Sequence record: MW250786
Strand: one strand, 5' to 3'
DNA length: 64,000 bases
Source of the DNA: Escherichia phage UPEC06
Part shown: positions 1,794-63,609 of the stretch, piece by piece
Numbering within the stretch: position 1 is the first letter of the stretch
How the letters are laid out: every line of letters starts with the position of its first letter
Translations under genes and position numbers: made by a program
Notes under the pieces: model-generated
What the model was told of the DNA's origin: nothing
The model's input: the letters and a program-made list of their open reading frames with translations, nothing else
The model's database searches: none

Positions 1794-2429
1794 ATGGTAA
1801 TCGATAAGATTTATGGCTGGACACCTATGATCCGTATGTCTGACATGCGATATCCGGTATACCTGGCCGACTATCGTGCTGAGTATCCCAACGTATCTAT
1901 CGGCAGTTTTGTTTATGCTGTTGGTATGGCTGAGGTTGGATATCATGCGGTTTATGACGTAACTATGCCGCAAGGTGATGTTGTTACTGAAGGATCGCCG
2001 GAATTACGTGAAGATGGATTCTGGTACAGAACTTGGAATGTTAGAGACTTCACCGAACAAGAGATCGCTGATAACCTTGCTCGTGAAAAAGAGCAGCGTA
2101 TCAATGAGGCTCGGATGACTCTTGATAATGAGAGATCCGAAGGGGTTGTTGTAGCCAGCAAACGATATCAGTCAGACGCTCAAGCTTTTGCTTATTATAG
2201 TTCCATCTCTGCTGTTGCTAAAGACTCACCTGAAGAAGTTTTTCACTTAGTTACTTCTGATAATCAGGTAGAAGAATTCCTCGGTGATGAAGTTATTGCC
2301 CATATAAAAGAAATTCAAAAAGTTAACGCAAAAGTTTATGACGAGTTTGCGAAAATTGTAAAATCTATCCGTGAAGCAAGTTCTTCTGAAGAAATCCCTC
2401 AAGTACCTCCCTCTTTTCAAAATCTTTAA
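1794..2429 (+). CDS. hypothetical protein (possible fibre accessory protein)
   Basis: ATG at 1794 preceded by AAAGGAG; the track start at 1755 lies inside the terminator hairpin so the downstream start is preferred. Confidence 0.5.
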   Translation: MVIDKIYGWTPMIRMSDMRYPVYLADYRAEYPNVSIGSFVYAVGMAEVGYHAVYDVTMPQGDVVTEGSPELREDGFWYRTWNVRDFTEQEIADNLAREKEQRINEARMTLDNERSEGVVVASKRYQSDAQAFAYYSSISAVAKDSPEEVFHLVTSDNQVEEFLGDEVIAHIKEIQKVNAKVYDEFAKIVKSIREASSSEEIPQVPPSFQNL

Positions 2430-2459
2430 TAGTAAATAAACTTACTTAAGGAGCATTGC

Positions 2460-4058
2460 ATGAGTAAAAGTATTAGAGGAATGGCAGGTCATAATAACGG
2501 TGTTTTTTACGGAAATGCCCTTTATGACTTAGAAAGAAAGGTTAAAATGGATTTTAAAGATATCATGGAAAAAGGTGATTCCAGCCAAACACCTGGTCCA
2601 GAAGGTCCACAAGGACCAAAAGGGGATACTGGCCCTGCCGGACCTGTAGGTCCTGTAGGTCCGCAAGGACCACAGGGTGAGATCGGGCCTCAGGGTCCTA
2701 CTGGCCCTCAAGGACCTGTCGGAGCTACTGGTCCTACCGGACCTGAGGGTAGTGAAGGACCACAAGGCCCTCAAGGAGAGCAAGGTATAGCTGGTCCAGT
2801 AGGACCAAAAGGGGATACTGGTGAACAAGGTCCTCAGGGAGAGCAAGGACCCGCTGGTCTAAAAGGCGATACTGGGGATATTGGCCCTGCTGGACAAGAA
2901 GGGCCAATAGGTCCGACTGGCCCAACTGGCCCTGCCGGACCAAAGGGGGATGTTGGTCCTCAAGGACCTAAAGGCGAAACTGGTGAGCAGGGACCTATTG
3001 GACCACAAGGCCCACAAGGGGATGTTGGTCCTGTAGGTCCAGCAGGGCTTACTTTCCGAGGTTTTTATGATCCTTTAGTTGAATACTCTCAGAACGATAC
3101 TGTATCTTACAACGGATCTACTTATTTTTCCTTAAGAACAAGTATAGGCGCTAGTCCAGACACATCACTTGAAGATTGGTCTTTATTGGCAGCAGAGGGA
3201 GCAAGAGGCCCACAAGGCCCAACTGGCCCTCAGGGACCTAAAGGCGACCAGGGTGAGATTGGTCCTGCCGGAGCTACCGGTCCTGAAGGTCCGACTGGCC
3301 CAACTGGCCCGACTGGACCCGCTGGACCGAAAGGGGATAAAGGAGATAAAGGAGAGGTTGGACCTCAAGGACCTAAAGGCGACCAAGGGGTTATGGGAGA
3401 ACAAGGACCGCAGGGTATCGCTGGAACTACTGGACCTGCTGGTCCACAAGGACCTAAAGGCGACAAAGGAGATGTTGGCCCTCAAGGTCCCGCTGGTCCA
3501 CAAGGTTTGGATGGTATCCAAGGCCCAGCGGGTCCCCAGGGGATTAGAGGAATACAAGGACCTAAAGGCGACACTGGTGAGCAGGGAGAGAAAGGGGATA
3601 AGGGTGACAAGGGTGAGAAAGGTGATGCAGGAATATCAAGAACATTCCTTAAGGTTAAAACATCATCTGTTGGCACCAATCACGCGATCAAAATGCCAGC
3701 ACCTCTTGATAACCTATCTATAGGCATAAGGCTTGATTCAGCGGTACGTTTTAGTATTAGGGGTTGGATTGATACAGATACGACAGCCAGAAATGTTAGG
3801 GGGGATATTGAAGGCTTCAATAACTCTGAAAATTACTTCAATACAACGGTAAGACAATTGATATCTTCATCAACTGCAACTGGCACAACCCTTGTAGCCG
3901 ATATCAGCGAATTCCAAAGAATTAGGCCATATACATTTAGCTTCTTTGAAACAACAACAGAGACAATGTGGAGAGTAACTATAACTCTCTTCACGTCAGG
4001 GTATGTAGTAACTGACAATCAATGGCTATGTATAGAAGCTGTTAGACTTGATGCGTAA
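2460..4058 (+). CDS. collagen-like triple-helix repeat protein with C-terminal globular domain
   Basis: Two long G-X-Y runs ([14 protein letters not shown]...) separated by a non-collagen segment; AAGGAG upstream. Confidence 0.75.
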
Positions 4059-4113
4059 AATAACTGACGAAGGGACTCGCCTACTGATTTGTTCTTTCCT
4101 TTAATAATAGCAA

Positions 4114-4139
4114 AGCCACCTTCGGGTGGCTTTCTTTTT
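4114..4139 (+). terminator. intrinsic terminator
   Basis: AGCCACC-TTCG-GGTGGCT followed by TTCTTTTT. Confidence 0.6.
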
Positions 4140-4197
4140 ATACAAATGACTTTCTCTTTTAATTGTGGTAAGATGATACAATACTCTGGAGGAAACT

Positions 4198-4716
4198 ATG
4201 CATACTGATGAAGAAGTAATTCAACTGGTAAGAACATTTTTAGGTGGCCTTACTGAAGAAGAGATGCCTGACAGCATCATTTTATTTTTCTACAACAAAT
4301 GGAAGGTCTGCTATGATTTGGAAAACAGACCAGACCAATTCTCAATAATCCTTTACAATACTGTTTTAGATTGTGTTCGTTGGCTCTTGGTACAGAACGT
4401 ATCAAGTGGAGCTTCTGGAATACGTGAACGGTTTGAAAAGGTTGGTGATGAAACTATCTCTGTTAAATATGGAGATAATTCCGGCAACTGGCAGGACTTC
4501 CTCGATTACTTACTTGAGCACCCAGAATACATTGATCCTTGCTTAAAAGAGAACTCTGGCCTAGGGCTGGTAATAATAGGTGGTGTTCGTAAAAATGAAG
4601 TTAATCGCGTCCGTCGTAACCCAAATTCATACAATGGGTTTATGGAGAAGGGCATTTATCCGGCACCAGGGACCAGATCAGGAGTAAGGAAGCGAAATCC
4701 GTGGATGGTCAACTAA
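4198..4716 (+). CDS. hypothetical protein (neck/head-tail joining module by position)
   Basis: ORF with GGAGG upstream; lies between fibre genes and sheath gene. Confidence 0.45.
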   Translation: MHTDEEVIQLVRTFLGGLTEEEMPDSIILFFYNKWKVCYDLENRPDQFSIILYNTVLDCVRWLLVQNVSSGASGIRERFEKVGDETISVKYGDNSGNWQDFLDYLLEHPEYIDPCLKENSGLGLVIIGGVRKNEVNRVRRNPNSYNGFMEKGIYPAPGTRSGVRKRNPWMVN

Positions 4717-4779
4717 AGCTTTGAGTTTGTTGCTTTTGCTCATCTATTGTGGTAAAATAACTTTCATGGAGAAATAACC

Positions 4780-5241
4780 GTGAAGAAAACATCAACAGTT
4801 GATTTTTCTGTCATGGATCACTATTTCGACCAACTCTCTGAATTGGAAACAAAAGAGATTGAGGTGGGCTTCTTTGATGAGGCTCACTATTCTGGTCTAA
4901 ATATGGCGACTCTTGCAGCAATTCACGAATTAGGATGGAACAATCTTCCTGAACGTAACTTCATGCTTTCTACTTCGATTCATTATCGCGGTGGACTCAT
5001 CAAGAACCTCAAACGGCTTAATGATGATTTGCTGAAAGGTAAGTCATATAGCCCTGCACTCAAGAAAATCGGTAAGGACTACGCTGACAGCATTCGTTTT
5101 ACAATTGATCAAGGTACGTTCTCCAATAACCGAGTATCCACTGCATGGGCGAGCTATAAAGGATTCAGTGATGCAATGATCCATTACGGCGATCTTTCAG
5201 ATGCAGCGAAGTTTAAGATTGTTCCTCTTACGAAAGACTAA
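4780..5241 (+). CDS. hypothetical protein (neck module by position)
   Basis: GTG start with GGAGAA upstream; co-directional operon. Confidence 0.45.
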   Translation: MKKTSTVDFSVMDHYFDQLSELETKEIEVGFFDEAHYSGLNMATLAAIHELGWNNLPERNFMLSTSIHYRGGLIKNLKRLNDDLLKGKSYSPALKKIGKDYADSIRFTIDQGTFSNNRVSTAWASYKGFSDAMIHYGDLSDAAKFKIVPLTKD

Positions 5242-7880: not shown

Positions 7881-8363
7881 ATGGCACTGAATCCTAAGTT
7901 AATTAGTCTCCAGGCGTATGACCCAGCCAAAGTCCTGATCTTTATCGGTGGTCAACGTGTTTCTGGATTCGCCGCTGATACGAAAGTCGTTGTTTCTCGT
8001 AACAATGATAACATTACTCCGCTGTCGGGTGTAGATGGTGAAGTGAGTTCTGCTATCGTCCGTGATAACTCCGGCGTAGTGACCATCTCTTTGCAGAATA
8101 CCTCTGTATGGAACGGTTATCTCTCTCAATGGCAGTTGCAAGCCCGTCTTACCGGACTTGTTTACTTCCCGATTCAGATTGAAGGTTCTCAGGGTCTATC
8201 TCTGAACACCTTCGGATGGATTCAACGTCAACCAGACCTGACCTACGGTTCTGAAGTAGGCCAGATGGACTGGGAAATTGGCGTAGTCGATGCACAGTTG
8301 AGCGCTGATCAGATTCAAGGCGTTGCTGCTGGTATCGGTGGAATCCTCGGACTGGATCAATAA
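7881..8363 (+). CDS. putative tail tube protein
   Basis: 160 aa ORF directly after sheath candidate and before chaperone pair. Confidence 0.45.
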   Translation: MALNPKLISLQAYDPAKVLIFIGGQRVSGFAADTKVVVSRNNDNITPLSGVDGEVSSAIVRDNSGVVTISLQNTSVWNGYLSQWQLQARLTGLVYFPIQIEGSQGLSLNTFGWIQRQPDLTYGSEVGQMDWEIGVVDAQLSADQIQGVAAGIGGILGLDQ

Positions 8364-8442
8364 TTACGTGAGCCTCAAGGATGAGGCCCTTCTTACGCTA
8401 CGGACATATTTATATTAACAAAGTGGACACAGGAGTGTAAAC

Positions 8443-8913
8443 GTGCAAGGTTTTAAATTTAAAAAGACTACAGAGATCACTCTCTGCGGCGGTAAGCGAT
8501 TCACGATTTATCATTGGTCGCCTACTCAAGTTATCCGTAATATGCCTAAAATTGGCAAGCTGGTAGCTGTTCCTTTGGGTACAATGGCAGGCTCTGCTAT
8601 TTCCGGTGGACAAGATTTTCAAGATGCTGTCCCAACCGCAATTCTTTATATTCTGGATCGTATCGATGAAGGTGGTCTGGAAATTATCAACCTTTTACTG
8701 GAAGGCGTTGAAGTAGACAACATGGGCGGCCCGATTGATATCGATGAAGTGTTTGATGGTCACGTAGAAGATTTGTTCAAGTTACTTGCTGAAATCATAC
8801 AGGTGAACTACGGCTGTTTTTTCGGCAAGAGCGGTTTCGGGACAATCGAAAATCTCCTTCAGAAGTTCGGTCTGGTTCGCAAGGTGGACCAACTGGATCA
8901 GACGGAAGCCTGA
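8443..8913 (+). CDS. tail assembly chaperone (G-like)
   Basis: GTG start; immediately upstream of tape measure gene; slippery site near 3' end. Confidence 0.55.
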   Translation: MQGFKFKKTTEITLCGGKRFTIYHWSPTQVIRNMPKIGKLVAVPLGTMAGSAISGGQDFQDAVPTAILYILDRIDEGGLEIINLLLEGVEVDNMGGPIDIDEVFDGHVEDLFKLLAEIIQVNYGCFFGKSGFGTIENLLQKFGLVRKVDQLDQTEA

Positions 8914-9179
8914 GGCCGCTGAGTACGGTGGAAAGGGCCTTGGAGTATTGTAGGAAAAACTCCAGTCTGAAATGGTATGACTATCTTTATTTCCGTGTCA
9001 TGGAGAAATTCAAGGGAGTTAATGAACTTTCTATTGAAAGTGGGGACATGGAAGACCTTCTTAAGAAAAATGAATATATAGATATTCAAGAATATTTGGA
9101 AGGTGTTCAAGAGAAAGAGAAGGAATACGAACGCCAGCGAATGGAACAACAAGAGGCCCAGTTAAAACGGAGAAAGTAA
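8793..9179 (+). CDS. -1 frame extension of tail assembly chaperone (GT-like fusion C-terminal part)
   Basis: ORF in -1 frame overlaps the last ~120 nt of the upstream chaperone gene and ends just before the tape measure gene. Confidence 0.5.
   Translation, partial: NHTGELRLFFRQERFRDNRKSPSEVRSGSQGGPTGSDGSLRPLSTVERALEYCRKNSSLKWYDYLYFRVMEKFKGVNELSIESGDMEDLLKKNEYIDIQEYLEGVQEKEKEYERQRMEQQEAQLKRRK
8817..8823 (+). other. candidate -1 programmed ribosomal frameshift slippery heptamer T_TTT_TTC
   Basis: XXXYYYZ heptamer in the zero frame of the 8443..8913 ORF (codons TTT 8818-8820, TTC 8821-8823); the -1 frame is open from 8793 to 9179. Confidence 0.5.
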
Positions 9180-9187
9180 ATAAATAG

Positions 9188-9222
9188 GGCTGGAGTCGAA
9201 AGACTCTGGCCTTTATTTTTAT
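9188..9222 (+). terminator. hairpin (GAAA loop) + U-tract, attenuator/terminator-like
   Basis: GGCTGGAGTC-GAAA-GACTCTGGCC (two G-U pairs) followed by TTTATTTTTATT. Confidence 0.4.
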
Positions 9223-9236
9223 TATGAGGAGTCGAA

Positions 9237-11660
9237 ATGGCTGTTGAAGTAATTGCAACAACAAAGAACCGAGTCATATTTGAAACTGACAAAGGTTCCT
9301 ATCGAAAAGCTCGTGAGGAGATCCGAAAACTCTCCAACGAATGGAAAAAGGCTTCAACAGAGGCTACCGCTGCCGGAAAGAATTCTCCTGCTGAGGCTTA
9401 TAAACAATCCGCTCGTGAAATGAGACTAGTCAGTAAACGTCTGGAAGAAACTCGGAAGCGTGAGGAGAAGAAGGCCACTGATTATCGTATTGCTCTGGCA
9501 AAGAAAGAAGCCAAGGCAAAAGAGGCAATTCAGAAGGTTTCTGCTGCAAGAATACGACAACAGGTTAAAAGCCTGACGGCTGCATCCCCTGGTTCTGCTG
9601 AGATGAGAAAGTTCTATCAGGAACAGGAGAAAGCTGCCCGTGCTGCTGCAAGATCTGCAAACCGTACAGCGACACCTTTACCGCCTTTCAACATCCAACG
9701 TGTGGAAGCTGCAAATCAATTATTATCTCGCGGTAACAGAGAGCCAGGGTCAGGTATTGTTGGAGATCCTAATAGCCGATTCAACCCTGATTTAATTGCT
9801 GCACAAAACAGAGCGATGCAACGTAGTTCTCGTATCAAAGAGAGAATGGAGAAGCAACAAACTCAAGAACAGGAACGTGAACGTGTCCGCGCTGCTCGTG
9901 CTGCTGCCCGTATTGATGATGTTACAGCACAACAGCGTATTCGTCTATCTTCTCGTTATGGTCGTGGTTATGCAGGTGCTTTGGGTCGTGACTCGGAAGG
10001 TCGTGGGATTGAAGATCTTAATAGACAATTCCGTGCAGGAACGTTATCATCTGGTCAGTATCGTCAAAGCATACAGGCGCTAGAAAGACAATTCCGTGCT
10101 GCACAGTCAAGTGCTGGATCTTTCTCTTCCACACTTAAAGATGTTCGTTCCAGCCTGGTAAGTGCTACTGCCGCATACGGAGTTTTCTCAGCAGGTGCAT
10201 CAATAACTCGTCAAGGTCAATTCTTTGAAGGAATCAACGCAACTTCTCTATTGATCTCTGATTCGGCAGAAGAAGCTGGTCAGCGTGTTAAGTTTGTTCG
10301 TGACGAAGCATACCGTTTAGGTTTGGATCTGAAAACTGCATCGCAGGGATTTACCCAGTTAGCGATCTCTGCTGATGGTGTTATTAGTAAATCTCAAACA
10401 GACGAATTATTTAGTGCATTTTCTGAATATTCCACCGCACTTCAGGTCGATCCCGTAAGATATCAGCGTGGCATTACAGCAATTCAACAGATCCTTGGTA
10501 AAGGTCAAGTAATGGCTGAAGAACTTAAAGGCCAGTTGGCTGAAGCAATTCCAGGTTCCTTGCAGGTATTCTTGAAAGCAACTCAGGAAGCTTTTGGTGA
10601 CACCTCTATCGACATTGCAAAATTGCTCAAGCTGATGGAAGACGGTGAATTGAAAGCCTCCAAGATCATACCTTTGGTTGGTAAATACTATGCAGAGGCT
10701 GCTAATAAAGGTGGTGCACTGGATAAAGCTTTGGAAAGTAACCGTGTTGCTTATCAGCGTTTAACCCAGACTTTTGCAGAGTTCCAAAACAAAATATTCC
10801 AAGGTGGCTTTGGAGAACAACTTACAAGAGTGTTCAATAACTTAGCTACGATCCTGTCAAGTAATGGTAATGTTGCCAGCACCATTGGTAGATTCTTCGG
10901 TAACGTAATTGAAGGGTTTACAGACATGGTTCTTGAAATTCACGATAACTTGGTCCTTCTCGACCGTGTTGTGACTTACTATTTCAAGAAGATTGGTGTT
11001 GAAGGTGAAACTCTTCGACAGGTGTTCGACTGGGGTTCTTATCTCCTCGGGATTGGATTATTCCTTGGTGGATTGACTAAAGTGTTCAACATCCTTGCTA
11101 AGATTGCAGGACTTAAAGGTGCACTTAAGGAAATTCGTGGTACACTCGGTGGTGATTTGGCTACAGGTGGAAAAACGAGCACAGGTGCAAGCACAACTGC
11201 TTCTGGCGGGGCAGGTACACCAGGTCAAACCAGCGTAGCGGGTAGATTCAGTCAGCTTGGTAAGCTTGGCAAACTCTTCGGCCTTGGTACTCTTTACTCA
11301 GCAGGGTCAGAGATCAATGACCGCTTTATTCAAAGTGGAGAGAGCCGATTGGCTGGAGCAGGGCTTGACGCAACAGCTTTCCAGCAGCAATATGGTGTAA
11401 CTCCACAACCTGTCGGGTTAACGGATGTGTTCATGGAGTTGTTTGGTGGCTCTCGTGACATAACTGTAGATCCTAACACTATCTCGACTCCATCTGGTAT
11501 TCGCCCTAGCGGATTTCCTCTGGAAACTCCAGCAGCACCACCTGAAGGTAAGATCACCGTTGAGATCAAGAGTGGAGAGATTCGTCAATATATCCGTGCA
11601 ATTGTGGATGAAGAGAACGGATTCAATATCAACCTGCTCACTCAGGGTGGTAACCAATAA
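9237..11660 (+). CDS. tail tape measure protein
   Basis: 807 aa, Ala/Gln/Arg-rich coiled-coil-like N-half, Gly-rich C-terminal region; follows chaperone pair. Confidence 0.7.
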   Translation: MAVEVIATTKNRVIFETDKGSYRKAREEIRKLSNEWKKASTEATAAGKNSPAEAYKQSAREMRLVSKRLEETRKREEKKATDYRIALAKKEAKAKEAIQKVSAARIRQQVKSLTAASPGSAEMRKFYQEQEKAARAAARSANRTATPLPPFNIQRVEAANQLLSRGNREPGSGIVGDPNSRFNPDLIAAQNRAMQRSSRIKERMEKQQTQEQERERVRAARAAARIDDVTAQQRIRLSSRYGRGYAGALGRDSEGRGIEDLNRQFRAGTLSSGQYRQSIQALERQFRAAQSSAGSFSSTLKDVRSSLVSATAAYGVFSAGASITRQGQFFEGINATSLLISDSAEEAGQRVKFVRDEAYRLGLDLKTASQGFTQLAISADGVISKSQTDELFSAFSEYSTALQVDPVRYQRGITAIQQILGKGQVMAEELKGQLAEAIPGSLQVFLKATQEAFGDTSIDIAKLLKLMEDGELKASKIIPLVGKYYAEAANKGGALDKALESNRVAYQRLTQTFAEFQNKIFQGGFGEQLTRVFNNLATILSSNGNVASTIGRFFGNVIEGFTDMVLEIHDNLVLLDRVVTYYFKKIGVEGETLRQVFDWGSYLLGIGLFLGGLTKVFNILAKIAGLKGALKEIRGTLGGDLATGGKTSTGASTTASGGAGTPGQTSVAGRFSQLGKLGKLFGLGTLYSAGSEINDRFIQSGESRLAGAGLDATAFQQQYGVTPQPVGLTDVFMELFGGSRDITVDPNTISTPSGIRPSGFPLETPAAPPEGKITVEIKSGEIRQYIRAIVDEENGFNINLLTQGGNQ

Positions 11661-53648: not shown

Positions 53649-54108
53649 TATTTATTTGGATACCGAAACGATTTTCATTTGAAGAAAAGAAACCCATCTT
53701 CATCCGATCAATCTCGTGTTTCATAACTTCCTGCATCGTTAATTTAAGGATTTCTTTGTTTAATTTTGGCTTAACTTCACGGAGCTTGTCAAGAAGTTTT
53801 TCCATTTCTTCTTTTACTTTTTCTTCCTCATTTTCTATCTCTAATTGGTCCATTGCATCTTTACAAACACAGCAATGGCCCACAACTCTTAAAATATGAT
53901 TTTGTATAGGTAATGCTTTTCTTCCACAATACCCACAAACAATAGACCCACCGGAGTTTCGAGCATCCACTGTCAATGTAGGTTTGGCCCCTTCTGCCTG
54001 AGAATTCCAAGTCTTTTTGCCTTGATAATCAAACATAAAGAATTCGTAGGATCTTTCATCAACGTGATCTTCGAGCATATGTAAAGTTCTTGTATTGAAA
54101 TGTTTCAT
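53620..54108 (-). CDS. Cys-rich protein (possible zinc ribbon), first gene of - strand early operon
   Basis: CGYCG...HCCVC; start abuts divergent promoter region. Confidence 0.45.
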   Translation of the reverse strand: MKHFNTRTLHMLEDHVDERSYEFFMFDYQGKKTWNSQAEGAKPTLTVDARNSGGSIVCGYCGRKALPIQNHILRVVGHCCVCKDAMDQLEIENEEEKVKEEMEKLLDKLREVKPKLNKEILKLTMQEVMKHEIDRMKMGFFSSNENRFGIQINNGEDYVEED

Positions 54109-54169: not shown

Positions 54170-54197
54170 TTGATTTGTATTTTATTTTCATTATACT
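54170..54197 (+). promoter_or_regulatory. sigma70-like promoter candidate
   Basis: TTGATT-N16-TATACT about 30 nt upstream of ATG 54229. Confidence 0.4.
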
Positions 54198-54228: not shown

Positions 54229-54792
54229 ATGAGTCAAGATAAAGAGTTAGCCATTGCGATATCCGTAGCTGCTTCTGCCCATGTTGACCAAGTAGATAAA
54301 GGGGGGAATATCTATATTCTTCATCCTTTGCAGGTGATGCAAACATTGCAGCAAAAGGGAAGGGAAGATTTAATGGCAGCAGGAGTTTTGCATGATGTGA
54401 TTGAAGATACTGAAATCACTATGGAACACCTCTTTAAAAAGGGGATTTCAGAAAGAACCTTAGTGATTGTCGATGCAGTGACAAAGAAACGTAAGCAATC
54501 TTCATCTGATTACCTAGAGGGGATTTTAGAGAGTGAGGGTGCTTGTCATGTTAAGCTTGCGGATCTTAAACACAACTTAGATATTCTGCGAACTTGTAGC
54601 ACCACAGAAAAAGACTTGCAACGGGTCAGGAAGTATGTAACAATGCACTTGTTGATTACGGAGATGGTTGATTGGTATGAAAGTATCGGAAGGTATCTCG
54701 ATTATTGTGATTCTTTTGCCTATTGTAGCTATCTCGACGAACGTAAAGAATTTGTTCAGAAACTTATTAAAAAATGGAAGGAGTTTAAATGA
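54229..54792 (+). CDS. HD-domain phosphohydrolase, RelA/SpoT-type (p)ppGpp hydrolase-like
   Basis: HPLQV...AAGVLHDVIEDT...VKLADLKHNL follows the Rel/Spo HD-domain pattern; 187 aa. Confidence 0.6.
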   Translation: MSQDKELAIAISVAASAHVDQVDKGGNIYILHPLQVMQTLQQKGREDLMAAGVLHDVIEDTEITMEHLFKKGISERTLVIVDAVTKKRKQSSSDYLEGILESEGACHVKLADLKHNLDILRTCSTTEKDLQRVRKYVTMHLLITEMVDWYESIGRYLDYCDSFAYCSYLDERKEFVQKLIKKWKEFK

Positions 54793-55322
54793 AAAAGGTA
54801 TTAAGTATCGAACCTTTCACAACAACATACTTTGACGATTTGGAACGTTACGGTGATTATGGGGTACAAGACGCTGATGGTTGGAAAGAATTCCCTGAAG
54901 AAACAAAAGGCCACATTACAAAGTTAGGTTGTAAGATTAATGGATCTGAACCAAAAGGTGTTTACACCATGTTTTCTTTCCTTGAAGCTATGAATCCTAC
55001 ATACAAGGGGGATAGACAATTTGGTTTTTCTTTTGCATCATTCCTTACTTGTAGTTGTGGTCATGGTGGTTGTGCGGGCTATCATGATAATGTGGTTATT
55101 CGACGTAAAAAGAATACCGTGATGGTCATGGGTAAAAAGGAAGATGGTTATGACGAAGGTGTTGTATTGACAGGTGAATCTGTTGTATACTTCGATAAAA
55201 AGCAGTGGGACGGTGTTCTAGAACACTACCTTAAACTCTTCAAAGAAAGTCCTGATGGTGTTTTTGAAGATGCGGGTTTTATGTTTACTGGTCGTTGGGG
55301 GACTAAAAATTTTTCAAAATAA
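54789..55322 (+). CDS. hypothetical protein
   Basis: ATGA overlap with HD gene; CSCGHGGCAGYHDN cluster. Confidence 0.45.
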   Translation: MKKVLSIEPFTTTYFDDLERYGDYGVQDADGWKEFPEETKGHITKLGCKINGSEPKGVYTMFSFLEAMNPTYKGDRQFGFSFASFLTCSCGHGGCAGYHDNVVIRRKKNTVMVMGKKEDGYDEGVVLTGESVVYFDKKQWDGVLEHYLKLFKESPDGVFEDAGFMFTGRWGTKNFSK

Positions 55323-55334
55323 TTTAAAAACTTG

Positions 55335-55362
55335 TTGACTTAAGAAATAGAAAAGATATACT
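55335..55362 (+). promoter_or_regulatory. sigma70-like promoter candidate
   Basis: TTGACT-N16-TATACT upstream of ATG 55393. Confidence 0.4.
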
Positions 55363-55392
55363 TATCACATCAAAAACAAGAGGAGATATAAA

Positions 55393-56622
55393 ATGCAAGA
55401 AACTTATCAACGTATGGACCAAACCATGTTCAAAAAACGTATCAGTGTTCGTGATATGGAATCACTGATTCGCCTGGGGGCTTCCATCGGAAAGACCGTA
55501 TTCTTTTTTGGTGGTGCTGGTCTTGGTAAGTCTGAAAAAGTAAAACAGATCGCTGATTCCATGTTCCCACATCGTGTAGGTAATAACCTTTGTGATGTTC
55601 GTCTGTCGGATAAAGAGCCACAAGATATCGCAGGTATTCCGATTCCGATCTCTTATCCAGATCCGAAAACTGGTAAAGAAGTCACTCGTACCGTATACGC
55701 AGTTCCAAACTTTTGGCCTACTGATCCTGATTGGGAAGGTATCGTGTTCCTGGATGAACTGCCAAATGCACCATTGGGCACTCAGCACTCTGCATATCAG
55801 GTTATTCTTGATCACGTTGCAGGTGAGCATAAGTTCCCGAAAGGTACTGTGTTTGTAGGTGCAGGTAACCGTGATACTGATGGAGCAGGGACTACTTCTA
55901 TGCCTGGTCCATTGGTTAACCGTATGATCATTGCAGAAGTTGATTATAATCTGGATGTGTGGATCGAAGACTATGCGATTCCGTTCCGTCTGCACCCGAA
56001 CATTATTGGTTTCTTGAAGCAGTTTCCAGAGCATTTCTATACTGGTGACGTAGAAAACCGAAGTACTCCGGTTTATTCATCTCCTCGTCAATGGAAAACA
56101 GCATCTGACATTCTGTACAAGTATGATGCGGGTGAGATTAATGAATTTATCGCAGAGGTTGCTCTTGCAGGTACAGTTGGTGAAGGCTTGGAAGTACAGA
56201 TCCTTGCTTATCACTTACGTGCTAAAGAACTTCCACCTATTGAAGATATCTTCAGTGGTGCAGTGGAAGAACATAAACTTGATCGCAGCAAGAACGACCT
56301 TGTTTACGTACTGGCACAAACTGGCCTTCGTCGCATGGAAGATGAAGTGATGGATAATGATATGCCGGATGATAAGTTCCTTGAACGTGCAGGTAACTTC
56401 CTTACGTTCATGTACAATAACTATTATGCGAACAACAAGGATACGATGATTGCTTTGATCTTGGGCGTGTTCCGTGGTCCAAACGATAAGCCATCTATCT
56501 TGACTGTTAACCCGAAACGTCAGAAAATGATTCCGCTTATGCGTAAGAGTTGCCCGACTGTTTCTGCCGCAGTTATGGAATACATGACTCGCTATGGTCA
56601 ACTGATTAAAGAATTCGAATAA
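55393..56622 (+). CDS. MoxR-like AAA+ ATPase
   Basis: Walker A GGAGLGKS, Walker B VFLDEL. Confidence 0.7.
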   Translation: MQETYQRMDQTMFKKRISVRDMESLIRLGASIGKTVFFFGGAGLGKSEKVKQIADSMFPHRVGNNLCDVRLSDKEPQDIAGIPIPISYPDPKTGKEVTRTVYAVPNFWPTDPDWEGIVFLDELPNAPLGTQHSAYQVILDHVAGEHKFPKGTVFVGAGNRDTDGAGTTSMPGPLVNRMIIAEVDYNLDVWIEDYAIPFRLHPNIIGFLKQFPEHFYTGDVENRSTPVYSSPRQWKTASDILYKYDAGEINEFIAEVALAGTVGEGLEVQILAYHLRAKELPPIEDIFSGAVEEHKLDRSKNDLVYVLAQTGLRRMEDEVMDNDMPDDKFLERAGNFLTFMYNNYYANNKDTMIALILGVFRGPNDKPSILTVNPKRQKMIPLMRKSCPTVSAAVMEYMTRYGQLIKEFE

Positions 56623-56626
56623 TCTC

Positions 56627-56655
56627 TTGACAACGAAAAACAGTTAACTTAATAT
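56627..56655 (+). promoter_or_regulatory. sigma70-like promoter candidate
   Basis: TTGACA-N17-TAATAT upstream of ATG 56703. Confidence 0.35.
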
Positions 56656-56702
56656 AAGGGCATCTCGAAAGAGGTGTCCTTTTTTAATTTGGAGAAAATG
56701 AA

Positions 56703-58235
56703 ATGGCAAAACTGACGATTGAAGAAAGTAACATGATTGAAATGCAAGTCTCTGAAGCGGAACGTATCATTGAGGCTGCTAGTCTACAACTGATGCGTTT
56801 TAAACCCTTCTACGGGGTGATGCTTTCGTCTATGCCTGTTAAAAAGGCAACTGAGTGGTGCAGTACAATGGCGACTGATGGACGCAACCTATACTATCAT
56901 CCAGAATTCATTGCAGGTATGACAGAAGAACGTAAAAAATTAGTACTCGATCGACTTTCCAAATCTGAGTCCGATCCTAAAAAGCTTAAAGAGGCAACTG
57001 AATTTATTAATGTTTTTTATCGACGGAAGACCGCTCGTGAAGTTGCACTTATTCTTGAGCATGAATGTGATCATGTGATCTCTGATCACGCCTCTCGCGG
57101 TAAAGGATTTAATCATGAACTTTACAACATTGCAGCGGATCATCGTATCAATACAACGGCTGTGCTTATTCACCAGAAAGGGGATGAGTTAGGTAAAGCC
57201 TGGTTCCCTGCCGGAGAGAGAACGGTATTTGATAAGAATGCTGAATTTGGATTTATGGCCTGGTCTTATTGTGACTTCCGATTCAAAGATATGTATACAG
57301 AGCAAATCTATGAAATCTTAAATAAAGAGCAGGACGATAAAGAAAAATCCAAAGGGGAAGGTTCTGGAAGTGGAAAAGGAGATGGTGAAGAAGGTGATCA
57401 AGGCCGTAAAGGTGTTGATCAGCACATGGACCCAAATGGTGATCCAGAAGATTCAGAAGATGATAGTATCGAAGATGCACTCGGAATCGACCGTAAAGCG
57501 AAACCTAAGCAAACAGCAGAGGAACGCCAATATAACGATGGGGTTATGCGTCGAGCCATTGAGAATGCCGTACAGGCAGCAGGAAGCGGTGCACCGGAAG
57601 ATGCACGACGTTTTGTAGAGGCGGCAGGTAAACCAAAGATTAACTATCTTCGTTTGTTGCGTAAAACTATTGAACGTCTGTTCAAAGATGATGTATCATA
57701 TCGTCGTTTGTCACGCCGTAGTCACTCGTTAACTCGGACTCTCCGTAGCTCAGGTTACTTGTCTGGACGACAAACAATTGGTTTACCATCAAAGAATAAA
57801 CAGAAGACTATCCGTGCAGGTGTTTTCTTTGATGTGTCGGGATCATTTAACGATGAACTGTTAAGACCAACAATGCGTGAGATTCGTGGATTGTGTAATC
57901 TTTACGACGAGTTTGAGGTCACGATGGCTTGCTGGTCAACAAAGGTTGGTAACATTGAAACGTATACGAAGAAGAATGTGAATGAGATTGCTAACTATAA
58001 GATCAAGACCACATTTGGTACGGATGTTTCTTGTGTGTTTGAAGCATTAGATGAAATGAAAGACCCTATGGATCAGATCATCATCTATACTGACGGTTAC
58101 TTTGCTGATGTATCCCAAAAGAAAGATTGGGCCAAAAAGTATGGTAAGAATGTTCTTTGGATCATCCTGGGTCGTGGGTCTTCGTTCAATCCACCTTTTG
58201 GTAAAGCCATTGATTTTGACAAGTATCTTAAATAA
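56703..58235 (+). CDS. HExxH metallopeptidase-like + VWA domain protein
   Basis: HECDH motif in N-half; MIDAS-like FFDVSGS in C-half; directly follows the AAA+ gene. Confidence 0.6.
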   Translation: MAKLTIEESNMIEMQVSEAERIIEAASLQLMRFKPFYGVMLSSMPVKKATEWCSTMATDGRNLYYHPEFIAGMTEERKKLVLDRLSKSESDPKKLKEATEFINVFYRRKTAREVALILEHECDHVISDHASRGKGFNHELYNIAADHRINTTAVLIHQKGDELGKAWFPAGERTVFDKNAEFGFMAWSYCDFRFKDMYTEQIYEILNKEQDDKEKSKGEGSGSGKGDGEEGDQGRKGVDQHMDPNGDPEDSEDDSIEDALGIDRKAKPKQTAEERQYNDGVMRRAIENAVQAAGSGAPEDARRFVEAAGKPKINYLRLLRKTIERLFKDDVSYRRLSRRSHSLTRTLRSSGYLSGRQTIGLPSKNKQKTIRAGVFFDVSGSFNDELLRPTMREIRGLCNLYDEFEVTMACWSTKVGNIETYTKKNVNEIANYKIKTTFGTDVSCVFEALDEMKDPMDQIIIYTDGYFADVSQKKDWAKKYGKNVLWIILGRGSSFNPPFGKAIDFDKYLK

Positions 58236-58244
58236 GGGGGATCT

Positions 58245-58616
58245 TTGAGCGAGTATACTTACAAGTTATCAGTTGGTAGGCGTGGTGTAGTTATGACTAT
58301 CAACATGATTAATGAAAGTGCGGAGGCTGTAAAATGGTGGGCCTCCACCTTTAACGGGAAAGGTTTTACTTTATCTCGCCATAAGATTGGATCAGGAAAG
58401 CCGATAGATCTTGTAAAGGAAGACACTTTCCTGTATCCTGATCGTATTGCTGATGAAGATATTGATTTCCTGTCTGCTACGGTTGGTAGTCTGTTAGATG
58501 AGGAGCCAGATATTGTAAGGTTGCTCTCTTTGCTTACCGCAATGTGGTCAGCAGGTCATGATGAGGAAAGTATGCATACGATGGTAAGGAATACGTTGAG
58601 ACGTTGGTCTAAGTAA
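58245..58616 (+). CDS. hypothetical protein
   Basis: TTG start 9 nt after upstream stop. Confidence 0.4.
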   Translation: MSEYTYKLSVGRRGVVMTINMINESAEAVKWWASTFNGKGFTLSRHKIGSGKPIDLVKEDTFLYPDRIADEDIDFLSATVGSLLDEEPDIVRLLSLLTAMWSAGHDEESMHTMVRNTLRRWSK

Positions 58617-61963: not shown

Positions 61964-62782
61964 ATGGCCTACCGTAAATTTGACCCACTGATCATTTATG
62001 AAGTTGTCCCAATGAGTATAGCCAACCCTCATGGTTTGCAATCACCTACTCCACTTGATCATAAAACAATGATCAGGAATGCAGAGTACACTTTAAGAGA
62101 TCTAGAGAATGAGGAGATTGAAAGTGCTGTGCATGGGTTGAAAGACCTGATCCGTGAACTTGATACGGATGATTCTGTTCAAGAATATATTGAAAAGTCA
62201 GAGGCACTAATCACGAAGTTTCATGAATACCGCACTAAGGTATCTCGTATTCTTGATGAAGCTTTTGATCCTTCATTAAAAGACCCGATAAAGGATGACA
62301 AAGCAATACTCTTGCTTAGTCAAATAGCTGACGCTACTGACAACATGGACCCTGGTTTTGTAAGAGCTGATCATACCTGTGTAGATCAGTTTCCTTTAGC
62401 TTATCTTAAATCCAAAAAGGCATTCGGTAGTCTGGCTTTTGTCTGGGAGTATGAGAAAGATTCCCTTACTCGTTACATCAATCGGGTAGGTAAGAAAGAT
62501 ATTTCAGTTACATTGAACATCTTCTCTGACGGTTCTTTGATGGTTCATAACAACTGGACAAAAGAAAGTATCCTCTTTGGTAAAGAAAGAGATCAGAAAT
62601 TTAAACTGGTAAACTATATCCGTTTCGCAACAGAGGATAGTAAAATGGGTAAGTCATTTAAAGAGGAGGACTTTAAAACTTTCTTTGAAGACTGGCTTTC
62701 CCCAACAGAAGAAGAGATCCAACTATTCAAAGCTGTGAATGGGGATGTTTCGTTCGACCTGTACACACTCTTTAACGAGTGA
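61964..62782 (+). CDS. hypothetical protein
   Basis: 272 aa; last gene before the repeat region. Confidence 0.45.
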   Translation: MAYRKFDPLIIYEVVPMSIANPHGLQSPTPLDHKTMIRNAEYTLRDLENEEIESAVHGLKDLIRELDTDDSVQEYIEKSEALITKFHEYRTKVSRILDEAFDPSLKDPIKDDKAILLLSQIADATDNMDPGFVRADHTCVDQFPLAYLKSKKAFGSLAFVWEYEKDSLTRYINRVGKKDISVTLNIFSDGSLMVHNNWTKESILFGKERDQKFKLVNYIRFATEDSKMGKSFKEEDFKTFFEDWLSPTEEEIQLFKAVNGDVSFDLYTLFNE

Positions 62783-62900
62783 TATTTGTTCGCTGAAACA
62801 AATTCAAATTTCAGATCCAAAATATATTTGAGATATTTCCCTGTGATATTTGTTTCATGGGGAATTTTCAGATTTCAATTTGAAATTCTATTTGAGATAA
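62780..62900. repeat. imperfect ~60-bp tandem direct repeat (2 units)
   Basis: Both units start TGATATTTGTT and share AAATTTCAGAT/AATTTTCAGAT and TATTTGAGATA. Confidence 0.55.
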
Positions 62901-62963
62901 ATTTAAGACTCCTGCCACCGTGCCCCCTCCATACTGTGTCATTCCTGCATACCTGCACCACTA

Positions 62964-62978
62964 GATCAACTTAGTTGA
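62964..62978. repeat. inverted repeat ATCAACT-T-AGTTGAT (operator-like)
   Basis: 7-bp arms, 1-nt spacer. Confidence 0.4.
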
Positions 62979-63078
62979 TGCCCCTTCTTACAGACTCACC
63001 CTCCAGATTCAATACGTTACTGTTCCAGTATACCTGTGATACAAAGCAAACATACGACACTAGTGACCAAAATAATTT

Positions 63079-63246
63079 GAGAACTTGAGGGGTTTTTCAT
63101 TTTTAAGATCGTAACCTGAAAGCTGTTCACGAGAACTTGAGAGGTTTTTCGATACAGCGATTAGGAACTTGAGAGGTTTTTCATTTTTGAGTTTGCATTT
63201 GAAATTGAGAACTTGAGCTACAGGCCAGATACTTGAGGGGTTTTTC
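63079..63246 (+). repeat. array of 4 direct copies (+1 partial) of 20-bp motif GAGAACTTGAGRGGTTTTTC
   Basis: Copies at 63079-63098, 63131-63150, 63163-63182, 63228-63246; partial 63207-63217; irregular spacing 32-65 bp; AT-rich flank. Confidence 0.65.
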
Positions 63247-63609
63247 AAATTTCAGTTTCATTTCAAAATTGAAAAATTTTTTATATGCACAAAAATATAG
63301 GGCTTGTCAAGGTCTTTGATAAGAAATTTTCAGGAGGTGAGAATTATTCTCATTTGCAGAATAACGGGCAGGGGTGGTGATTGCTTCGTGAAACCGTCCT
63401 CATCACCATGAATATATAATAGCACCGTTTTTGATTAGAAAGCAACAACATTTTAAAAATATTTTTCGGTAAATTTTGGGCGAGCTACCGGCGATCCACC
63501 TTACAACCTGGCGGCGATGCCTGGTATGTTAGCCCCGCCTTTACGCCGTGGGGATGGCGATTGTTTTCCTATGTAAGCATTATGGCCCCTGGCGGGGCCG
63601 TTGTCAACA

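Follow-up and report, generated by a model that had tools for sequence, protein, structure and literature searches.

A predicted small alarmone hydrolase of the Aph1 type encoded next to a MoxR ATPase/peptidase-VWA pair of the N4 gp24/gp25 type in Escherichia phage UPEC06

Introduction

Stand-alone small alarmone hydrolases (SAHs) and pairs formed by a MoxR-class AAA+ ATPase and a metallopeptidase fused to a VWA domain are both described in phages, and genes of both kinds lie next to each other in Escherichia phage UPEC06 (sequence record MW250786), between positions 54229 and 58235 of a 64,000-nucleotide stretch, hereafter called the window. Among the described hydrolases, Aph1 of Bacteroides caccae (PDB 7SMG) cleaves pApp, ppApp and pppApp, its hydrolysis of ppGpp is undetectable, and the Aph signature defined by Ahmad et al. 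(2023) contains the residues D24, R96, D116, R119, K133 and Y134; the D24R/R119A double mutant acquires ppGpp activity (PMC10083569). The SAH of the Salmonella phage PVP-SE1 neutralised CapRel, PhRel2, FaRel2, PhRel and FaRel, which are all the toxic small alarmone synthetases (toxSAS) tested (PMC7229694, Table 1). Four of these five toxins pyrophosphorylate the 3' CCA adenosine of tRNA and SAHs reverse this modification (10.1101/2021.04.30.441581), a removal of the tRNA-CCA pyrophosphate also described in PMC11245113, and toxSAS of the CapRel type are bona fide anti-phage systems (PMC9712102).

The pair of ATPase and metallopeptidase-VWA proteins is already described as well (PMC7824862, PMC4193335). 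In phage N4 it corresponds to gp24 and gp25, which are both part of the 14-gene core of N4-like phages and belong to the middle transcripts in N4 (PMC4193335), and Iyer et al. (2021) reported a MoxR and metallopeptidase-vWA pair in the group 2.2 jumbo phages, for which a role in virion assembly was proposed (PMC7824862). No experimental work on what the phage pair does came up in our literature search. [quoted passage not shown] A preliminary description of the UPEC06 locus, made from the sequence alone, had tentatively read its four genes as a single cluster that could degrade nucleotide signals and serve host takeover or anti-defence. Here, the four proteins, their relatives and their gene order in other phages are compared.

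Gene content and position of the locus

The open reading frame (ORF) scan of the window shows four genes on the + strand, at 54229-54792, 54789-55322, 55393-56622 and 56703-58235, which encode proteins of 187, 177, 409 and 510 residues, respectively. All of them were found where the preliminary description had placed them and contain the motifs that it had quoted: HPLQV, AAGVLHDVIEDT, VKLADLKHNL, GGAGLGKS, VFLDEL, HECDH and DVSGS. The four proteins match PHROG families with E-values of 1.7e-52, 1.8e-57, 9.5e-100 and 8.5e-107, in gene order, and they are real genes, far beyond chance. Profile searches gave further matches for the HD protein, for the ATPase as a profile of 33 sequences and for the peptidase-VWA protein, and the 177-residue protein, which contains a cysteine motif, matched PHROG only. 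The explanation that we consider probable as a whole is that three functionally separate things, a putative alarmone hydrolase, an orphan accessory protein and an ATPase/peptidase-VWA pair, stand abreast at the start of a rightward, non-structural transcription block.

Genes of the - strand reach position 54108 and genes of the + strand extend from 54229 to at least 62782, and the GC skew switches sign at 54 kb, from about -0.2 to about +0.17. The opposite strands together with the change in skew indicate that the 120 nucleotides between 54109 and 54228 are a divergent intergenic region, without strand of its own, between a leftward and a rightward gene block, and that the HD gene heads the rightward one, which agrees with the separate + strand module previously proposed. 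A region of 4.6 kb shows 93-97% DNA identity with the Escherichia myophages LTH01, A7_1, A5-4, A73 and W70, whose records belong to the Vequintavirinae and label all four genes as 'hypothetical protein'. W70 is included in the four novel E. coli phages that form the new genus Septuagintavirus (PMC11370258), and the window phage is a Septuagintavirus-like, rV5-like coliphage of the Vequintavirinae.

The HD protein

The protein encoded at 54229-54792 (+ strand) belongs to phrog_990 and, in Pfam, shows HD_4 (8.7e-8, above the gathering cut-off) and otherwise only HD, with no synthetase domain. The TIGR00691 model (spoT_relA) matches with an E-value of 2.7e-15 along model positions 1-85, which correspond to the hydrolase part only, and the small hydrolase without synthetase recognised in the preliminary description is thus upheld. 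Its nearest relative in the PDB is 7SMG, the (p)ppApp hydrolase Aph1, with 6.3e-22 over residues 8-143, and this match exceeds those of the other structures by ten orders of magnitude: about 1e-11 for the hydrolase domains of Rel and SpoT and about 1e-7 for MESH1. The alignment to residues 9-141 of Aph1 is colinear, with one gap of three residues, and suggests that the HD protein has the same compact core as Aph1, which does not contain two helices of the (p)ppGpp hydrolases.

In an alignment of 20 sequences, 19 of them from the window and related loci and the other one Aph1, H18 and the metal-binding and catalytic residues H32, H55, D56, E59, D60, D112 and N116 are invariant in 20 of 20, so the metal-binding His and Asp residues, whose lack would have spoken against a hydrolase, are all in place. 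Invariant in the same 20 sequences are D23, D118, R121, K135 and Y136 of the window protein, which are the counterparts of D24, D116, R119, K133 and Y134 of Aph1; the HD protein keeps, therefore, five of the six signature residues, including both that control specificity in Aph1 (D24 and R119). The Arg that stacks on guanine in the Rel enzymes is replaced by D23 (QYRKSGEPY in Rel of B. subtilis, QVDKGGNIY in the HD protein). The HD protein is 47% identical to gp220 of PVP-SE1 over 154 residues, and its probable attribution to the PbcSpo type, to which Jimmy et al. (2020) assigned that PVP-SE1 protein, follows from this pairwise identity. On these sequence grounds, the HD protein is predicted to be a stand-alone SAH of the RelA/SpoT kind, Aph1-like and of the PbcSpo type.

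With gp220 of PVP-SE1 the window protein shares the phage subfamily, the catalytic and Aph-type residues and the neighbourhood, upstream of a MoxR ATPase gene on the same strand, but it has a C-terminal extension of 30 residues, and PVP-SE1 shows four other genes between the HD gene and the ATPase gene and lacks the overlapping Cys-motif gene. Aph1, which is also borne by a phage, is colinear over the HD core and shows the same metal site and the five signature residues listed above; it differs in that it provides immunity, in a temperate phage, to a (p)ppApp synthetase toxin fused to MuF, whereas the HD gene of the window has no adjacent toxin gene and belongs to an rV5-like myovirus. The rV5-like myoviruses are described as lytic.

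A different arrangement of the domain was observed in the Pectobacterium phage phiTE, where phiTE_055 (3751-4992 in locus L085; also 8247-9485 in locus L004) encodes a protein of 413 residues whose C-terminal 180 residues are the HD domain, and whose N-terminal part of 230 residues has no match in Pfam.

The ATPase and the peptidase-VWA protein

The protein encoded at 55393-56622 (+ strand) belongs to phrog_1297 (9.5e-100). As a single sequence it gave no match in Pfam (AAA_3 and AAA_5 included), NCBIfam or PDB, and the profile built with 33 homologues matches the AAA domains of midasin (4.5e-12). In these 33 homologues, Walker A residues G43, G45, K46 and S47, Walker B residues D121 and E122, and N159, R160, R177 and R232 are invariant, and the protein shows the complete set of AAA+ elements: Walker A (GGAGLGKS, G40-S47), Walker B, sensor 1, Arg finger and sensor 2. 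Its AlphaFold2 (AF2) model has a predicted local distance difference test (pLDDT) score of 88.8 and contains an AAA+ core and a helical C-terminal extension of about 170 residues. In the Foldseek search with this model, the first 14 places go to two MoxR proteins, NorQ (by itself or complexed with NorD) and CbbQ2, and dynein comes next. The model also shows a beta-hairpin after helix 2 (82-103) and a second, short hairpin (141-150) before the strand of sensor 1 (151-158), as expected for the clade of MoxR and dynein. The model thus places the protein in the MoxR class of the AAA+ ATPases, which is how the preliminary description had read it.

The protein encoded at 56703-58235 (+ strand) shows two Pfam domains above their cut-offs: DUF2201_N (PF13203, a putative metallopeptidase), with 4.8e-25 and 89.1 bits for a cut-off of 23.2, and DUF2201 (PF09967, VWA-like), with 8.6e-8 and 32.8 bits for a cut-off of 26.4. 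All 101 database homologues contain PF13203 and 100 of them contain PF09967 too. Its conservation was evaluated in 69 distinct homologues from the fetched loci and in 39 diverse database homologues: at least 96% of the former retain residues H120, E121, H124, H129, R132, N142, D146 and N150 and the MIDAS residues D377, S379, S381, T440 and D464, all of which are invariant in the latter. The HExxH motif is joined by a further His five residues on, and both this HExxH...H and the DxSGS...T...D motif are invariant across the homologues of Vequintavirinae, jumbo phages and marine phages. The AF2 model (pLDDT 81.9) contains two folded domains separated by a disordered, acidic and Gly-rich linker at 219-252. 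The C-terminal domain has a VWA fold, which matches BatB, integrin I domains, the VWA domain of NorD and the MIDAS domain of Rea1, and for the zincin peptidase domain the structure search gave no solved counterpart. Therefore, the HExxH and VWA features noticed in the preliminary description are substantiated: the 510-residue protein combines a zincin peptidase of the DUF2201 family and, fused to it, a VWA domain whose MIDAS is complete.

Both proteins are homologous to those of N4 in profile comparisons with hhalign, the ATPase to gp24 (probability 99.9, E-value 1e-34) and the peptidase-VWA protein to gp25 (probability 99.9, E-value 1e-37), and gp25 itself contains DUF2201_N (3e-87) and DUF2201 (1e-46). 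By sequence homology, they are a pair of the N4 gp24/gp25 type, which is also present in jumbo phages. As in N4, the ATPase gene of the window is directly followed by the peptidase-VWA gene, both on one strand and in a part of the genome that is not late. N4 differs in that gp25 has 380 residues and lacks the acidic/Gly insertion of about 90 residues, gp24 has 352 residues, no HD gene lies beside the pair, and the proteins share only about 25% identity with those of the window. The pair of the group 2.2 jumbo phages shows the same domain architecture and adjacency, and a search that started from the window ATPase retrieved RaK2-type loci; unlike the window, they have a 350-kb background in which the pair lies beside virion-protein genes, and the window context does not particularly support the assembly role proposed for them. 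NorQ-NorD and CbbQ-CbbO share with the phage pair the ATPase fold, nearest to NorQ and CbbQ2, and provide a mechanistic template with the VWA finger in the pore, but their partners have no peptidase domain and act on nitric oxide reductase and Rubisco, respectively, the phage ATPase has the extra C-terminal helical domain of about 170 residues, and identity is about 15%.

The label of phrog_1314, 'HNH endonuclease', which the peptidase-VWA family carries in several RefSeq and GenBank records as well, N4 gp25 (2165-3307 in locus L086) and phiTE_060 included, is wrong. It probably spread from free-standing HNH homing endonuclease genes located between the ATPase and peptidase-VWA genes. The names 'anti-sigma factor' and 'DNA repair ATPase' are given to the protein in other records. 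In A7_1, A5-4 and phiTE, the gap between the two genes is filled by such a free-standing HNH gene (8599-9093 in locus L001; 6775-7287 in locus L085), and the gap of the window, of 80 nucleotides (56623-56702), has no HNH insertion. In rV5 as well, the region that tblastn matches to the VWA gene overlaps a feature annotated as 'HNH endonuclease'.

Gene order in related loci

Gene order was compared in 82 loci, 79 from viral contigs fetched with the ATPase profile plus three annotated loci, in which all genes were searched with iterated hidden Markov models. The peptidase-VWA gene is present in 78 of the 82 ATPase loci, the HD gene in 21 and the Cys-motif gene in five. Of the four loci that lack the VWA gene, three are contigs that end just after the ATPase gene. 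The fourth (L009, IMGVR_UViG_3300045988_163358, 136 kb) is the sole locus with full flanks and without a VWA gene: none was found within 10 kb upstream or 4 kb downstream, nor a fragment of it by tblastn. The ATPase of this contig shows 38% identity, and its comparison by blastn with locus L011, taken as rV5-type, gave no match at an E-value of 1e-20; its peptidase-VWA gene may lie more than 10 kb away.

The distance between the two genes of the pair depends on the lineage. In phages of the Septuagintavirus and Certrevirus type, RaK2-like jumbo phages and several metagenomic lineages, the VWA gene lies on the same strand, from 0 to about 540 nucleotides downstream of the ATPase gene, and the larger gaps are loci with an inserted HNH gene. 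A marine clade of about 30 contigs (L046-L082) always shows a gap, with the VWA gene about 0.7-1.1 kb downstream; in locus L067 this gap (10227-10997) contains an ORF of 256 residues with no match in Pfam or PHROG, which may be a third component in the marine lineage. In the genera Seunavirus, Vequintavirus and related ones, the VWA gene is 3.4-5.1 kb off, on the opposite strand, across the divergent region.

The HD gene of the 21 loci that contain it is always on the strand of the ATPase gene and 0.4-1.7 kb upstream of it, and all 21 are of the Vequintavirinae type. The records of the GenBank phage set point in the same direction as the loci: matches in Escherichia phages number 215 for the ATPase, 148 for the VWA protein and 15 for the HD protein, and the HD protein is found in 74 records of T4-like Aeromonas phages and in 35 of Streptococcus phages. 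The co-occurrence of ATPase and VWA genes, set against the sparse HD and Cys-motif genes, indicates that the first two are a genuine pair and the others lineage-restricted neighbours.

The Cys-motif gene and other features of the region

The gene at 54789-55322 (+ strand) is located between the HD and ATPase genes in the loci that have it, and its start overlaps the stop codon of the HD gene by 4 nucleotides, so that in this genus the two proteins are probably translated together. The protein, of phrog_8242, has no match in Pfam, NCBIfam, PADLOC or, by profile, in the PDB. Its family is extremely small: an exhaustive search of 1.8 billion representatives gave only 22 clusters and a word-index search gave two homologues. 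Two of the contigs that encode relatives were too short to show their gene context. The C-x-C-G-x3-C motif (C88, C90, G91 and C95) is invariant in the family, whose genes occur in phages of the Septuagintavirus and Certrevirus types and among the RB49-like T4 phages. We class it as an orphan accessory gene, to which no function can be assigned.

Downstream of the pair, a small ORF of 123 residues (58245-58616, + strand; phrog_12385, 4.4e-27) follows the VWA gene in seven of seven Septuagintavirus/Certrevirus-type loci and shows weak homology to gp215 of PVP-SE1 (26% over 80 residues, pairwise E-value 2e-5), which lies in the same position, directly after gp216. It may be a conserved companion gene of the pair within the Vequintavirinae, or the gene of its substrate. 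In the RaK2-like loci, another conserved gene (phrog_15894) is located downstream of the pair, at a distance of two or three genes.

Sigma-70-like matches are found in the divergent region, back-to-back, at 54170-54197 on the + strand (TTGATT-16-TATACT) and at 54166-54138 on the - strand (TTGATC-17-TATAGT), and each intergenic gap contains one too, at 55335-55362 and at 56627-56655 (TTGACA-17-TAATAT). The last one is just upstream of a strong terminator-like hairpin at 56656-56691 (+ strand), in the gap between the ATPase and peptidase-VWA genes, with a stem of 11 bp, a GAAA loop and a T-run. In the 8-kb region, 24 promoter-like matches were found and 21.5 are expected from shuffled sequences, which is no enrichment, and so these sites are positional suggestions only. 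A promoter is annotated at the corresponding divergent point of PVP-SE1, and a terminator at the position of phiTE that is equivalent to the hairpin.

The stretch 62779-63333 is poor in ORFs and contains four copies of a 20-nucleotide element, GAGAACTTGAGRGGTTTTTC, at 63079, 63131, 63163 and 63227, within repeats of 48 nucleotides, and two copies of a separate 57-nucleotide repeat at 62779 and 62843. These repeats could be regulatory sites or a replication origin.

Discussion

The enzyme class of the HD protein is shown by its sequence, and the substrates of the protein are likely to be adenosine 3'-pyrophosphates, that is, (p)ppApp and pyrophosphorylated tRNA-CCA, and not mainly (p)ppGpp. The closeness to Aph1 and the retention of the residues that control its specificity suggest that the (p)ppGpp hydrolysis put forward in the preliminary description is probably wrong as the main activity, and nothing points to cyclic oligonucleotides as substrates. 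An enzyme that acts chiefly on (p)ppGpp, with which the phage would suppress the stringent response of the host and keep transcription and translation going, would fit the homology to the RelA/SpoT hydrolase domain, seen with TIGR00691 and the Rel structures, and the name guanosine-3',5'-bis(diphosphate) pyrophosphohydrolase that several phage records give to relatives; we consider it unlikely, because the protein is much nearer to Aph1 than to the Rel enzymes, because the guanine-stacking Arg of Rel is an invariant Asp here and R121 is kept, the two positions whose exchange gives Aph1 ppGpp activity, and because all 12 Aph1 homologues tested cleaved ppApp and only two of the 12 showed a modest ppGpp activity (Ahmad et al., PMC10083569). 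Three points weigh against the preference for adenine nucleotides and its extension to counter-defence: the position of R96 of Aph1 is a Gly in the window protein and an Arg in five of the 20 aligned sequences; ATfaRel, an SAH of the PbcSpo family, was reported to degrade both (p)ppGpp and ppApp, which makes a strict adenine specificity unsure; and the neutralisation of toxSAS was obtained by co-expression, not in phage infection (PMC7229694). This neutralisation is a result of the 47%-identical orthologue, and gp220 is presumably the PVP-SE1 protein tested, as PMC7229694 names no gene number. The terminal 3' adenosine of tRNA carrying a 3'-pyrophosphate is chemically an adenosine 3'-pyrophosphate, which would fit an Aph-type pocket. 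The metal-dependent HD protein would most likely remove the 3'-pyrophosphate from pApp, ppApp, pppApp and CCA-pyrophosphorylated tRNA, and its action would reverse that of toxic small alarmone synthetases of the CapRel, PhRel, FaRel2 and FaRel types, which serve bacteria and prophages as abortive-infection immunity; a role of this kind during infection is what we infer for the window phage. Cooperation of this enzyme with the MoxR/VWA pair in a single cluster that degrades nucleotide signals for host takeover or anti-defence, as originally suggested, is in our opinion improbable. It would account for the four genes on one strand directly after a divergent intergenic region of early type, for the overlap between the HD stop codon and the start of the Cys-motif gene and for the constant position of the HD gene upstream of the ATPase gene in 21 of 21 loci, which could reflect more than shared ancestry and counts against our separation of the genes. 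This linkage is, nevertheless, limited to one subfamily and is explained by shared descent; the pair has no HD gene in 61 of the 82 loci (rV5-type, jumbo and marine/N4-like phages) or in N4 itself, most of the records with the HD protein from T4-like Aeromonas phages (74) and Streptococcus phages (35) have no pair, the VWA gene is distant and on the opposite strand in Seunavirus and Vequintavirus, and the PADLOC models give no match. These curated defence models matched the proteins of the region at chance level only (CasR 0.009, DolB 0.018), and the region was rejected as a known defence or anti-defence system.

For the pair, the architecture and the intact active sites are observed, and the formation of a complex, proteolysis and the target are proposed by analogy. 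The phage VWA protein has the three-part layout of NorD, an N-terminal domain, a disordered linker and a VWA domain with MIDAS, and this layout, together with the strictly conserved catalytic motifs, leads us to propose an ATP-driven, MIDAS-targeted remodelling coupled to the cleavage of one protein. As in NorQ-NorD and CbbQ-CbbO, the ATPase would form a hexameric ring to which a single VWA protein is bound, the MIDAS would grip an acidic residue of a specific target, ATP hydrolysis would remodel this target through the VWA adaptor and the flexible linker, and the fused zincin domain would then cut it. Tentatively, and at slightly less than even chances, we place this target among the intracellular proteins of the early-to-middle phase, of replication and nucleotide metabolism, rather than among virion proteins. 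The alternative of Iyer et al., a morphogenesis chaperone with a processing protease, drawn by analogy with the MoxR/VWA system that the Acidianus two-tailed virus needs for tail development, has been published as a prediction for this pair in the jumbo phages of group 2.2 (PMC7824862) and speaks against an intracellular target; so do the genes labelled 'virion structural protein' that RaK2-like jumbo phages and one metagenomic locus have just upstream of the pair (with a tail tube gene too in RaK2 and locus L049), and the conservation of the pair as core genes across podo-, myo- and jumbo phages would suit a basic step of assembly. We regard it as possible although somewhat unlikely, given that the N4 pair belongs to middle and not late transcripts, among replication and nucleotide-metabolism genes, that the pair of the window is about 28 kb from the leftmost + strand block (the first ~24 kb), presumed to be the structural module, that the Vequintavirinae already own a capsid maturation protease (W70_136), and that the neighbours elsewhere include a dCTP deaminase in N4, a thymidylate synthase in RaK2 and DNA polymerase, ligase and exonuclease in others. 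The four proteins of the window type, of which W70_33 is the VWA protein, are absent from the 28 virion proteins of W70, but this is weak evidence, as an assembly chaperone is not expected in virions, and the timing of the genes in the window phage is deduced from gene order and from N4 only. A bolder version, in which the pair is an ATP-driven targeted protease whose victim, destroyed early or midway through infection, is a conserved host protein such as an immunity or nucleoid protein, and in the Vequintavirinae forms an early counter-defence island with an HD protein that is specific for adenosine 3'-pyrophosphates and repairs tRNA against CapRel-type immunity, seems improbable. A likeness to CobS/CobT pairs, annotated in large marine phages, was suggested in the preliminary description; it would make the pair a cobaltochelatase-like auxiliary metabolic one, was rejected on domain content and is extremely improbable: the general build, a MoxR-class AAA+ ATPase and a VWA protein, is the same and a 'MoxR-like ATPase' of a cyanophage matches at 34% identity, but no CobS or CobT model of Pfam or NCBIfam matches at E-values up to 0.1, the VWA partner has a zincin peptidase domain that CobT does not have, and the marine relatives examined contain DUF2201_N and DUF2201 like the N4 gp24/gp25 family. 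The statement that such pairs have no known function still holds, while the pair itself had already been described.

The HD hydrolase and the pair are both of previously described kinds, and the locus contains no system of a new kind. What is added, with nothing unexpected to specialists, is the link of the toxSAS-neutralising hydrolases to the Aph1 signature, the unification of the pair and the correction of annotations. The names 'hypothetical protein', 'HNH endonuclease', 'anti-sigma factor' and 'DNA repair ATPase' can be replaced by consistent ones: Aph1-like small alarmone hydrolase for the HD protein, and N4 gp24/gp25-type MoxR ATPase and zincin-VWA partner for the pair. The pairs of N4, Vequintavirinae and jumbo phages are brought together as one family, which, being present in the core genes of N4-like phages, in most of the rV5-like loci examined and in RaK2-like jumbo phages, offers a defined target for genetics in easy hosts. 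The position of the toxSAS-neutralising phage hydrolases closest to the (p)ppApp-specific Aph1 family suggests why the pyrophosphorylation of tRNA-CCA would be reversible, as the substrate is an adenosine 3'-pyrophosphate; an Aph1-like HD protein predicts that coliphages of the therapeutic type may counter immunity of the CapRel and FaRel types.

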